The notes under the pieces are model-generated. The model was not told the DNA's origin, did no database searches, and saw only the letters and a list, made by a program, of their open reading frames with translations. The position numbers and the translations under genes are program-made. Positions 1,739 to 2,758 of a stretch of 64,000 bases of DNA are shown here, in pieces (within the stretch, counting starts at the first letter, position 1; the number at the start of each line of letters is the position of its first letter). The stretch comes from Escherichia phage VEc74, in the sequence record MT932213.1. One strand, given 5' to 3'.

Positions 1739-1830
1739 ACGAAACGCCGGGATTCGAACCCGGTTATTAAGTAGTTGACGCTACTCAATATTTTTAAAAG
1801 GCCATATCTCGACCATATCCGAACGTTCCG
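1739..1830 (-). ncRNA. tRNA-like element with non-canonical D and anticodon arms (possible degenerate tRNA or small stable RNA)
   Basis: Canonical T-arm CCGGG-TTCGAAT-CCCGG and a 7-bp acceptor pairing (CGGAACG/CGTTTCG with one G-U), but the internal 58 nt do not fold as standard D and anticodon arms. Confidence 0.3.
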
Positions 1831-2003
1831 TCAAAAACGCTACTCGGCTTACGGCAAAGATATTTCCTCGAATCGATAATTCGGTGCGCCGTTTCTGCTG
1901 TGATATAAGGGGACATTAACAAAACATAAAGATTTATTAATGCCAGTCCTTAAACAGGGAACATCAGTCCGACGACTTGCCGGTAGCGACCCGGCTTCTT
2001 GTC

Positions 2004-2079
2004 TGGTCGAGGCAGTAGGGATCGAACCTACGACCCAGGACTTAGAAGGTCCTTGCTCTTCCTTCTGAGCTATGCCTCG
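2004..2079 (-). tRNA. tRNA-Arg (anticodon TCT)
   Basis: Hand-folded cloverleaf: acceptor CGAGGCA/TGCCTCG, D-stem GCTC/GAGC, anticodon loop CTTCTAA, T-arm GTAGG-TTCGATC-CCTAC, CCA encoded. Confidence 0.85.
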
Positions 2080-2083
2080 TATT

Positions 2084-2158
2084 TGGCGGACGTGATAGGA
2101 TTCGAACCTATAACCAATCGCTTAACAGGCGATCGCTCTGCCATTGAGCTACACATCC
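2084..2158 (-). tRNA. tRNA-Asn (anticodon GTT)
   Basis: Hand-folded: acceptor GGATGTG/CACGTCC, D-stem GCTC/GAGC, anticodon loop CTGTTAA, T-arm ATAGG-TTCGAAT-CCTAT, CCA encoded. Confidence 0.8.
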
Positions 2159-2162
2159 AAAT

Positions 2163-2249
2163 TGGTGGGGAGTGGTGGAGTCGAACCACCCGAGTCGCAA
2201 TGACAATGGATTTACAGTCCACACCGCTACCTCTACGGGATAACTCCCC
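2163..2249 (-). tRNA. tRNA-Tyr candidate (anticodon GTA), type II with long variable arm
   Basis: Acceptor GGGGAGT/ACTCCCC, anticodon stem-loop GTGGA-CTGTAAA-TCCAT, T-arm GGTGG-TTCGACT-CCACC, CCA encoded; D-arm pairing is irregular in my manual fold. Confidence 0.55.
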
Positions 2250-2259
2250 CAAATTAATT

Positions 2260-2334
2260 TGGTGGCCCTGGGTGGAATTGAACCACCATCTGGCGATTAT
2301 GAGTCGCTTGCTTGAACCTTCCAGCTACAGGGCC
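2260..2334 (-). tRNA. tRNA with CAT anticodon (Met or Ile2; T4 counterpart is tRNA-Ile)
   Basis: Acceptor GGCCCTG/CAGGGCC, anticodon loop CTCATAA, T-arm GGTGG-TTCAATT-CCACC, CCA encoded; 1-nt spacer to tRNA-Thr. Confidence 0.8.
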
Positions 2335-2335
2335 T

Positions 2336-2411
2336 TGGTGCTGATTGACGGAATCGAACCGCCGACCTTCTCATTACAAGTGAGTTGCTCTACCTACTAA
2401 GCTAAATCAGC
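2336..2411 (-). tRNA. tRNA-Thr (anticodon TGT)
   Basis: Acceptor GCTGATT/AATCAGC, D-stem GCTT/GAGC, anticodon loop CTTGTAA, T-arm GGCGG-TTCGATT-CCGTC, CCA encoded. Confidence 0.85.
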
Positions 2412-2416
2412 AAAAC

Positions 2417-2506
2417 TGGCGGAGGCGATAGGATTTGAACCTATGAGTCGCCGGAGCGACTGCCGGTTTTCAAGACCGGTGCATTAAACCACTCTGCCAC
2501 GCCTCC
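2417..2506 (-). tRNA. tRNA-Ser (anticodon TGA), type II
   Basis: Acceptor GGAGGCG/CGCCTCC, 3-bp D-stem, anticodon stem-loop CCGGT-CTTGAAA-ACCGG, long variable arm, T-arm ATAGG-TTCAAAT-CCTAT, CCA encoded. Confidence 0.85.
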
Positions 2507-2508
2507 AG

Positions 2509-2582
2509 TCTCCGCGGCAGGATTTGAACCTGCGACATTCTGCTCCCAAAGCAGACGCTCTACCAAACTGAGCTACACGGAG
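2509..2582 (-). tRNA. tRNA-Pro (anticodon TGG)
   Basis: Acceptor CTCCGTG/CGCGGAG, D-stem GCTC/GAGC, anticodon stem-loop TCTGC-TTTGGGA-GCAGA, T-arm GCAGG-TTCAAAT-CCTGC; CCA not encoded; 2-nt spacer to tRNA-Ser (dimeric precursor arrangement as in T4). Confidence 0.85.
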
Positions 2583-2592
2583 TAAATTAAAT

Positions 2593-2666
2593 TGGAGCGG
2601 ATAATGAGAATCGAACTCACATCATCAGATTGGAAGTCTGAGGTAATACCATTATACGATATCCGC
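2593..2666 (-). tRNA. tRNA-Gly (anticodon TCC)
   Basis: Acceptor GCGGATA/TATCCGC, anticodon stem-loop TCAGA-CTTCCAA-TCTGA, T-arm GTGAG-TTCGATT-CTCAT, CCA encoded. Confidence 0.8.
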
Positions 2667-2671
2667 AAATT

Positions 2672-2758
2672 TGGTGCGAGAAGTGGGACTCGAACCCACA
2701 AGGAAATCATTCCGCAGCATTTTAAGTGCTGTGCCTTTACCAATTTGGCCATTCTCGC
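2672..2758 (-). tRNA. tRNA-Leu (anticodon TAA), type II
   Basis: Acceptor GCGAGAA/TTCTCGC, 3-bp D-stem, anticodon stem-loop CAGCA-CTTAAAA-TGCTG, long variable arm, T-arm GTGGG-TTCGAGT-CCCAC, CCA encoded. Confidence 0.85.

Follow-up and report, generated by a model that had tools for sequence, protein, structure and literature searches.

A T2-type tRNA gene cluster in Escherichia phage VEc74 that includes a phage-type tRNA-Tyr gene and a predicted SegB target site

Gene content of the tRNA region

The stretch of DNA analysed here, referred to as the window, is 64,000 nucleotides (nt) of Escherichia phage VEc74 (sequence record MT932213.1), and the subject of this report is a cluster of tRNA genes close to its beginning together with the small stable RNA genes that follow it. 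ARAGORN found exactly nine tRNA genes in the window, all on the minus strand between positions 2004 and 2758, and called for each a cloverleaf with a 7-nt anticodon loop and a T-loop. The Rfam tRNA model (RF00005, curated gathering score 29 bits) independently recovered the same nine genes, eight of them at 59.9–74.1 bits, with tRNA-Asn scoring highest (74.1 bits) and tRNA-Tyr lowest (30.3 bits). Nine adjacent matches with E-values of 1e-10 to 1e-14 exclude chance.

A first-pass annotation, made from the sequence alone, had listed nine tRNA genes on this strand separated by spacers of 1–10 nt, and number, anticodons, strand and spacing were all borne out, as was its remark that tRNA-Asn and tRNA-Tyr are missing from the T4 set, which agrees with the annotated T4 record. 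The covariance scores that it had proposed as a check on these two candidates are both above 29 bits, that of tRNA-Tyr only narrowly. Its span of 1739–2758 for the cluster holds for 2004–2758; the remainder, 1739–2003, contains no tRNA gene and is occupied instead by homologues of T4 rnaD and rnaC that it had overlooked. Neither ARAGORN nor Rfam found a tenth tRNA in 1739–2003, where the only tRNA-like signal was a 17-bit match to tRNA-Sec within rnaC. Though the first-pass annotation implied that the arrangement was novel, it was published in 2008 for phages T2L, RB1 and RB3 (PMC2330249), and hundreds of phage records in GenBank are annotated with it.

Along the minus strand, the cluster begins with tRNA-Leu(UAA), a class II tRNA with an encoded CCA end (2672–2758; Rfam 64.0 bits; 86/87 nt identical to tRNA-Leu of both T4 and T2), and tRNA-Gly(UCC) (2593–2666; 65.8 bits), which is identical over all 74 nt to its counterparts in T4, T2 and T6. 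The next gene, tRNA-Pro(UGG) (2508–2582; 70.2 bits), is a variant and is the exception among the nine in that its CCA end is not encoded. It is identical (75/75) to the gene in Shigella phage vb_GEC_SH_GT and shares 63/75 nt with that of T2 (~83%) and 62/75 with those of T4 and phage Ozark, the differences falling in the anticodon stem, T-stem and acceptor stem. The class II tRNA-Ser(UGA) (2417–2506; 62.6 bits) is of the T2 type (90/90 nt) and ends in CCAG, as reported for the Ser site of T2L (PMC2330249). It is followed by tRNA-Thr(UGU) (2336–2411; 71.7 bits; 72/76 versus T4), a tRNA with a CAT anticodon that is most likely tRNA-Ile2 of the T2-type allele (2260–2334; 59.9 bits; 75/75 versus T2), and a phage-type class II tRNA-Tyr(GUA) (2163–2249; 30.3 bits; 86/87 versus T6 and 85/87 versus T2). 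The last two are tRNA-Asn(GUU), with discriminator G73 (2084–2158; 74.1 bits; 75/75 versus T2), and the T2-type allele of tRNA-Arg(UCU) (2004–2079; 65.8 bits), which matches T2 at 76/76 positions and T4 and T6 at only 50/76.

In the annotated T4 record, rnaD (119 nt) and rnaC (139 nt) lie directly after tRNA-Arg, and their homologues follow tRNA-Arg in the window on the same strand, in the same order and with the same spacing. The rnaD homologue (species 2 small stable RNA; 1883–2002) has 101 identities over 116 aligned T4 positions (~87%) and a fold z-score of -2.73, while the rnaC homologue (species 1; 1738–1876) is identical to T4 rnaC at 138 of 139 positions and folds at -50.2 kcal/mol (z-score -4.56). 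No Rfam family covers either RNA. The rnaC homologue ends in a T-arm-like 3' hairpin, CCGGGUUCGAAUCCCGG, which accounts for the weak tRNA-Sec match mentioned above. Both RNAs are late T4 transcripts whose function is still unknown (PMC9697503). After rnaC, an intrinsic-terminator-like hairpin on the minus strand (1687–1664; a stem of 10 base pairs (bp), seven of them G-C, then TTTTT) would end a transcript carrying the tRNAs, rnaD and rnaC.

The 1.8-kilobase (kb) region made up of these genes matches 1020 phage records, almost all of them from T-even-like coliphages, and the relatives align to it along its full length. The best match, Shigella phage vb_GEC_SH_GT, is 98.1% identical over 1.8 kb in one piece and agrees with the window in both the identity and the order of its nine tRNAs; its annotated neighbouring genes are those of T4 and Ozark, and open reading frames (ORFs) of matching sizes are present in the window. 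The neighbourhood is that of T4, with trna.2-4 and internal protein genes upstream and homologues of e.8 and e.6 downstream. These matches identify the window as part of a Tequatrovirus genome, with the T2-type allele of the classic tRNA locus.

Structure and conservation of tRNA-Tyr

The tRNA-Tyr gene has a marginal Rfam score. In bacteria, the identity set of tyrosyl-tRNA synthetase (TyrRS) consists of the GUA anticodon, A73, G1-C72 and a long variable arm. By inspection, the window tRNA-Tyr has each of these TyrRS-type features and A37. Its acceptor stem is joined by a 4-nt connector, UAUC, to a regular 4-bp D-stem (CCGU/GCGG) with a 7-nt D-loop, the variable arm is 15 nt long, and A73 is followed by an encoded CCA. 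The gene is thus non-canonical in one respect, namely that it lacks the standard 2-nt connector (positions 8-9), and its marginal covariance score can be put down to the conserved 4-nt connector. The first-pass annotation had described the D-arm as irregular, and there is indeed a departure from the standard cloverleaf near the D-arm; however, the D-stem itself is regular and the oddity is the connector in front of it.

Homologues were collected by a pattern scan of viral contigs and de-duplicated to 61 distinct sequences, to which the T6 gene was added to give 62. The anticodon loop and the 3' half of the D-stem were prescribed by the scan pattern; no filter acted on the 5' strand of the D-stem, on the anticodon stem or on the variable stem. 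When these sequences were fitted to a cloverleaf with a 4-nt connector (U8 A9 and two variable nt), 99.1% of cells were paired and 19 of the 24 pairs had compensatory double changes, whereas none of 500 shuffles did as well and controls in which the structure was slid along the sequence reached 43–53%. All five helices are paired in 96–100% of the homologues; the D-stem is paired in 62/62, and in five of these CCGU/GCGG has become CUGU/GCAG. Conservation extends to A73, to the GG of the D-loop and to the anticodon and T-loops. Placing the D-arm in the canonical register, with a 2-nt connector, left 57% of D-stem cells paired and one pair that was never formed.

Three other identities for this gene were considered and rejected. 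For tRNA-Sec, the Rfam score is 35.4 bits against a gathering score of 47, and the anticodon is GUA and not UCA; a tmRNA-like identity is likewise below the Rfam threshold and does not fit the GUA anticodon. Descent from rnaC or rnaD does not apply, as both are encoded after tRNA-Arg and their sequences align with T4 rnaD and rnaC, not with tRNA-Tyr.

The first-pass annotation had raised the possibility that this is a pseudo-tRNA or derives from a small stable RNA. This finds no support: the gene is identical to that of T6 at 86 of 87 positions, and every stem in the gene family shows near-perfect pairing and compensatory change. A decayed remnant, passively carried and unused in translation, would be consistent with the low Rfam score (30.3 bits) and with the thermodynamic fold, in which the minimum free energy (MFE) structure is not a cloverleaf (z-score -1.49); moreover, the FelixO1 homologue has been flagged as pseudo, others are labelled tRNA-OTHER, and ARAGORN misses two of 12 fetched relatives, namely those from a Karamvirus (with a 5-nt connector) and an Enterococcus phage. 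We nevertheless find this explanation barely credible. The cloverleaf lies just 1.8 kcal/mol above the MFE structure, the helices and the loops are maintained in the 62 homologues as described, the near-identical T6 tRNA-Tyr is expressed and biologically active (PMC13096335), and T5-family members must have an intact anticodon and intact stems in order to act (PMC11555353). Hence, decay is effectively refuted for the T6 gene and essentially excluded for the window gene, which on the comparative evidence is a genuine, constrained and conserved phage tRNA and not a pseudogene.

Relatives of tRNA-Tyr

Homologues of the tRNA-Tyr gene are found in rV5-like (97% identity), FelixO1-like (87%) and T5-like (83%) phages, and also in Klebsiella, Acinetobacter and Enterococcus phages, the last being one of the copies missed by ARAGORN. 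A blastn search of the phage collection found 446 records in which tRNA-Tyr and tRNA-Asn are neighbours, counting matches that cover 80% or more of the pair. No E. coli chromosome gave a blastn match to the phage-type tRNA-Tyr. The gene does occur, at 93% identity, at 273 places on E. coli plasmids (~270 plasmids of roughly 110 kb); in pEC881_2 (NZ_CP019027), it lies in an Asn-Tyr-Thr-Ser cluster (2921–3747) beside a DNA ligase gene and an integrase gene. The Tyr-bearing plasmids of ~110 kb are probably phage-plasmids.

Variants with a 5-nt connector (UAAUU or UAUUU) were seen in Enterobacter phage vB_EluP_RZH (Karamvirus) and in three viral-contig copies, the latter found by pattern. The vB_EluP_RZH copy (61–150 of the fetched stretch), missed by ARAGORN, is also unannotated in its GenBank record, and phage tRNA-Tyr genes with such connectors may be under-annotated more generally. 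A scan of a genome collection for the phage-type gene yielded ~15 true members among 120 pattern matches. Those in bacterial or metagenome-assembled sequences (Lachnospiraceae, Clostridia and others) are nearly all on short contigs with dense arrays of 5–21 tRNA genes, where they often adjoin tRNA-His or tRNA-Ser(GCU), and this context hints at mobile elements, possibly prophages or phage contigs binned into genomes, more than at native bacterial tRNA-Tyr genes.

A wider proposal, which we put forward tentatively and consider unlikely to hold in full, is that the phage-type tRNA-Tyr represents a distinct, horizontally mobile lineage with a conserved non-canonical core that is possibly adaptive rather than a neutral quirk. 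The core would consist of a 4-nt (occasionally 5-nt) UA+NN connector, a D-stem displaced by 2 nt towards the 3' side and a D-loop shortened by 2 nt, and the lineage would extend over the Straboviridae, Vequintavirinae, Ounavirinae, Demerecviridae and Schitoviridae, probably the Herelleviridae, the ~110-kb plasmids and the metagenomic arrays. If this were true, the altered core could change how nucleases and modification enzymes view tRNA-Tyr while recognition by TyrRS is retained. We found no description of the connector in the T2L, T6 and T5 tRNA papers cited here, older T5 and T2 tRNA literature being outside the reach of our search, and we regard the conserved 4-nt connector and its spread across phage families as only a mildly new detail.

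Identity of the CAT-anticodon tRNA

The tRNA with the CAT anticodon could be assigned to either methionine or isoleucine. Its nearest E. coli matches are annotated as tRNA-Ile (81.6% identity over the full length), and the identical gene in phage Ozark is annotated as tRNA-Ile2-CAT. The acceptor pairs C4-G69 and C5-G68 are determinants for TilS. Both are present in the acceptor stem of this gene (GGCCCTG/CAGGGCC), which has no initiator-type mismatch at 1-72. Hence, the gene product is most likely an Ile2 tRNA of the lysidine type, which would carry the lysidine modification and read AUA, and this is a better call than Met. The T2L counterpart was named tRNA-Met (PMC2330249), a name taken from the anticodon alone. 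The gene is identical to that of T2 (75/75) and shares only 47/75 nt (63%) with T4 tRNA-Ile, the first 12 nt being in common and the sequences divergent thereafter.

Codon demand

Codon use in 56 non-overlapping ORFs of at least 100 codons in the window (18,516 codons) was compared with that of E. coli K-12. The most over-used codons are AGA (5.6-fold relative to E. coli), AUA (3.6-fold), ACU, GGA (3.3-fold), UCA (3.0-fold), ACA (2.9-fold) and UCU; next come AAU (2.5-fold), UUA (2.3-fold) and UAU (2.0-fold), interleaved with GCU, CCU and CCA. At the level of amino acids, the three most enriched are Lys (1.61-fold), Asn (1.53-fold) and Tyr (1.46-fold), whereas His is at 0.6-fold. Asn codons amount to 63.5 per thousand in the plus-strand ORFs, mostly late structural genes, versus 53.3. 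The first-pass annotation had suggested that codon usage be examined for Asn and Tyr enrichment, and the value of ~1.5 times that of E. coli for both supports a role in supply.

It could be argued that supply is all there is, that is, that the tRNAs serve codon and amino acid demand only and that tRNA-Tyr and tRNA-Asn have no part in defence. The rank of Asn and Tyr among the three most enriched amino acids would fit this, as would the match between the other encoded tRNAs and strongly over-used codons and the somewhat greater frequency of Asn codons in the plus-strand, mostly late structural, ORFs. However, T4 thrives without tRNA-Tyr and tRNA-Asn; Ozark adds a tRNA-His even though His codons are at 0.6-fold, so that codon demand leaves the tRNA-His of sister phages unexplained; and experiments with T6 show a direct defence benefit of the same Tyr gene (PMC13096335). 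We consider an account based on supply only to be unlikely, if deserving of serious attention.

tRNA-Tyr and host defence

The tRNA-Tyr of T6, visible on northern blots, rescues T6 from the Septu defence system when it is over-expressed or amplified through SegB, while T4, which has no tRNA-Tyr, is unable to escape (Chihara et al. 2026, PMC13096335). Septu cleaves tRNA-Tyr at C48/A49 in the variable arm, and the T6 tRNA-Tyr is itself cut, with the wild-type gene dosage only partly protective (PMC13096335). In the T5 family, tRNA-Tyr neutralises retron-Eco7 in a dose-dependent manner and only when neither its anticodon nor its stems are disrupted (Azam et al. 2024, PMC11555353), and it must function in translation in order to do so (PMC11555353). 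By analogy, the window tRNA-Tyr would buffer the phage, in a dose-dependent manner, against defences such as Septu and retron-Eco7 that cleave tRNA-Tyr. It retains the GUC|A motif that Septu cuts in the host and T6 tRNA-Tyr.

The targets of colicin E5 are exactly the tRNAs for Tyr, His, Asn and Asp. A more far-reaching possibility is that the Tyr-Asn(-His) module serves chiefly to counter defence, with codon supply in second place. It would be directed against nucleases specific for tRNAs with a GUN anticodon, namely Septu/PtuAB in the case of Tyr and anticodon nucleases resembling colicin E5 in the case of Tyr, His, Asn and Asp. The accessory tRNAs that vary among the T-even phages are Tyr, Asn and His, all of the GUN type, and tRNA-Tyr adjoins tRNA-Asp in FelixO1, tRNA-Asn on the ~110-kb plasmids and tRNA-His in several metagenomic arrays; Septu and retron-Eco7 do target tRNA-Tyr and are counteracted by phage Tyr tRNAs (PMC13096335, PMC11555353). 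On the other hand, the cited papers name no defence system targeting tRNA-Asn here, the GUC|A motif is kept, so the window tRNA-Tyr is not a resistant variant, and the adjacency of GUN tRNAs is known from individual examples. We think it rather improbable that defence is the main purpose of the module, but this and the account based on supply only differ in emphasis and are not contradictory.

Predicted SegB target site and homing endonuclease genes

The tRNA regions of T2L, RB1 and RB3 have been sequenced and have no segB, but include tRNA-Met(CAT), tRNA-Tyr, tRNA-Asn, a variant tRNA-Arg and RNA species I and II (Brok-Volchanskaya et al. 2008, PMC2330249). The preferred 27-bp site of the homing endonuclease SegB lies in the tRNA-Asn gene, and SegB homing from T4 excludes ~1250 bp of T2L, including the Met, Tyr, Asn and Arg tRNA genes (PMC2330249). 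We reconstructed this site using the description in the text of that paper (PMC2330249), namely the motif GGTTCRANTCC, CCAR, and the five positions at which it departs from the Ser site (G6, A16, G18, A26 and A27). All of these features fit the sequence GGTTCGAATCCTATCACGTCCGCCAAA at 2082–2108 on the minus strand, inside tRNA-Asn. The same 27 bp are found exactly in T2, Ozark and vb_GEC_SH_GT and are absent from T4 and T6, which carry segB.

A tblastn search of the window with T4 SegB found no segB homologue within the cluster. The sole Seg-like (GIY-YIG) ORF in the window, at 44042–44572 on the plus strand, is 31% identical to T4 SegB (E-value 5.5e-15) and is a different free-standing homing endonuclease gene, far from the cluster. 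With the target present and segB absent, SegB would be expected to cut the tRNA-Asn site of this phage, and the Tyr-Asn-Arg block is predicted to be lost in mixed infection with T4-type phages.

At the other end of the cluster, a 210-amino-acid (aa) ORF of the HNH endonuclease type (2765–3397, minus strand; Pfam HNH 17.3 bits, under the cut-off of 21.4) stops 6 nt short of tRNA-Leu, at a position occupied by tRNA-Gln in T4, T2 and T6, and its counterparts in Ozark and vb_GEC_SH_GT are annotated as HNH endonucleases. No remnant of tRNA-Gln was found upstream of tRNA-Leu. The HNH ORF may represent a second homing endonuclease insertion that displaced a tRNA gene, and its position in the place of tRNA-Gln is further evidence that homing endonucleases shape this locus. 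The trna.2 homologue and the HNH gene are separated by a 174-aa ORF (3473–3997, minus strand) that T4 and Ozark lack at this position; in T2, an ORF of comparable length lies upstream of tRNA-Gln. There were no Pfam matches for the 174-aa and 108-aa flanking ORFs.

Taken further, these observations could mean that the composition of the cluster is mainly a by-product of selfish homing traffic (SegB and the HNH enzyme), with near-neutral tRNAs that are gained and lost by co-conversion. The allele boundaries fall inside or at tRNA genes, as in the CAT tRNA, which follows T4 tRNA-Ile for 12 nt and then diverges; segB stands in place of tRNA-Asn in T6 and the HNH gene in place of tRNA-Gln; and SegB homing excludes ~1250 bp of the T2L region (PMC2330249). 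However, the covariation indicates purifying selection on every tRNA helix, which conflicts with a purely selfish-DNA explanation. In addition, tRNA-Asn, tRNA-Arg and the CAT tRNA are 100% identical to those of T2, the benefit of tRNA-Tyr has been demonstrated in T6 (PMC13096335), and homing is in any case compatible with the tRNAs being useful cargo. Homing as the main explanation appears quite improbable to us.

Interpretation

We conclude, with a probability of roughly 0.88, that this is a T2-type Tequatrovirus tRNA region in which nine functional tRNA genes are followed by rnaD, rnaC and a terminator, and that it operates as follows. The genes with their folds, their homology and covariation, the codon demand and the intact SegB site were observed directly. 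As in T4, the tRNA genes would share a transcript that host enzymes process into mature RNAs, and the tRNAs, once aminoacylated, would top up the host pool for the AGA, AUA, GGA, UCA, ACA, UUA, Asn and Tyr codons that are over-used in an AT-rich phage. tRNA-Tyr would have the additional, dose-dependent role of buffering against Septu and retron-Eco7 that the T6 gene suggests. The CAT-Tyr-Asn-Arg block is an alternative allele to the Ile-segB-Arg block of T4 and, having no segB and a SegB site in tRNA-Asn, would act as the recipient that is cut and converted in mixed infection with a segB-bearing phage. Homing-driven exchange would then account for the differing tRNA sets of T4, T2, T6 and Ozark.

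Several points weigh against this conclusion. The margin of tRNA-Tyr over the Rfam threshold is 1.3 bits, and close relatives are labelled pseudo (FelixO1) or tRNA-OTHER in some GenBank records. As the filter applied to the covariation sample required an intact acceptor stem and T-arm, the pairing in those two helices is inflated. The codon comparison used a crude, length-based gene call and a hand-entered table of E. coli K-12 codon use, and the SegB site was taken from the text of the 2008 paper and not from its figure. Finally, as T6 tRNA-Tyr is itself cut by Septu and is only partly protective, one copy of the gene may bring little benefit against defence.

The arrangement is an ordinary and already known one: a paper of 2008 described which genes are present, where they lie in the genome, how the locus is polymorphic relative to T4 and what part SegB plays (PMC2330249), and the function of tRNA-Tyr against tRNA-cleaving defences was shown for T6 in 2026 (PMC13096335). 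For annotation of this and similar genomes, 1738–2002 should be labelled as rnaD and rnaC, the CAT tRNA as Ile2 and not Met, and tRNA-Tyr should not be labelled as pseudo.

Comparison with known phage and host tRNA genes

The layout in T4 is Gln-Leu-Gly-Pro-Ser-Thr-Ile-segB-Arg-rnaD-rnaC. The window agrees with T4 in genome position, strand and the order of Leu, Gly, Pro, Ser, Thr, rnaD and rnaC, and identities are high for Gly (100%), Leu (99%), Ser (97%), Thr (95%) and rnaC (138/139). T4 differs in having tRNA-Gln and segB and no tRNA-Tyr or tRNA-Asn, and it carries other alleles of the Ile(CAT) gene (63% identity) and the Arg gene (66%). In T6 (Gln-Leu-Gly-Thr-CAT-Tyr-segB-Arg), segB directly follows tRNA-Tyr, the CAT and Arg alleles are of the T4 type, tRNA-Gln is present, and tRNA-Asn, tRNA-Pro and tRNA-Ser are missing. 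The T6 and window tRNA-Tyr genes share the same variable arm, including the GUC|A Septu motif, and their single difference is a G30-C40 pair in the window that is G-U in T6. As the window has no segB beside tRNA-Tyr, the SegB-driven amplification of tRNA-Tyr in cis is unavailable to it.

In T2 (AP018813; Gln-Leu-Gly-Pro-Ser-ORF-CAT-Tyr-Asn-Arg), the CAT-Tyr-Asn-Arg block is identical to that of the window at 329 of 331 positions, and identity reaches 100% in each of the CAT, Asn, Arg, Ser and Gly genes. T2L, RB1 and RB3 likewise lack segB and have the CAT-Tyr-Asn-variant Arg(UCU) order followed by RNA species 2 and 1, with the SegB site in tRNA-Asn. Unlike the window, T2 has tRNA-Gln upstream of tRNA-Leu, an ORF between tRNA-Arg and rnaD, and an ORF between tRNA-Ser and the CAT tRNA, where no tRNA-Thr is annotated. 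The window has tRNA-Thr, no ORFs inside the cluster, the HNH gene in exchange for tRNA-Gln and a different tRNA-Pro allele (63/75). Ozark has the layout of the window with tRNA-His added between tRNA-Asn and tRNA-Arg.

The T5-like phages carry a tRNA-Tyr of the same structural family (UA+NN connector, CYGU/GCRG D-stem, GGUAG D-loop, ~83% identity), but they belong to another phage family, the promoter context is different, and it is the T5-family gene for which rescue was shown. E. coli tyrU resembles the window tRNA-Tyr in being a class II tRNA with a GUA anticodon, G1-C72, A73 and a GUC/GAC variable-arm stem, and the distance from the acceptor stem to the anticodon stem is 20 nt in both. Only 57 of 87 positions are identical. 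tyrU has a 2-nt connector, a CCC(G)/(A)GGG D-stem, a 9-nt D-loop and a variable loop of 3 nt, whereas the phage gene has a 4-nt connector, CCGU/GCGG, a 7-nt D-loop and a variable loop of 5 nt; relative to tyrU, its D-stem is displaced by 2 nt towards the 3' side and its D-loop is 2 nt shorter.

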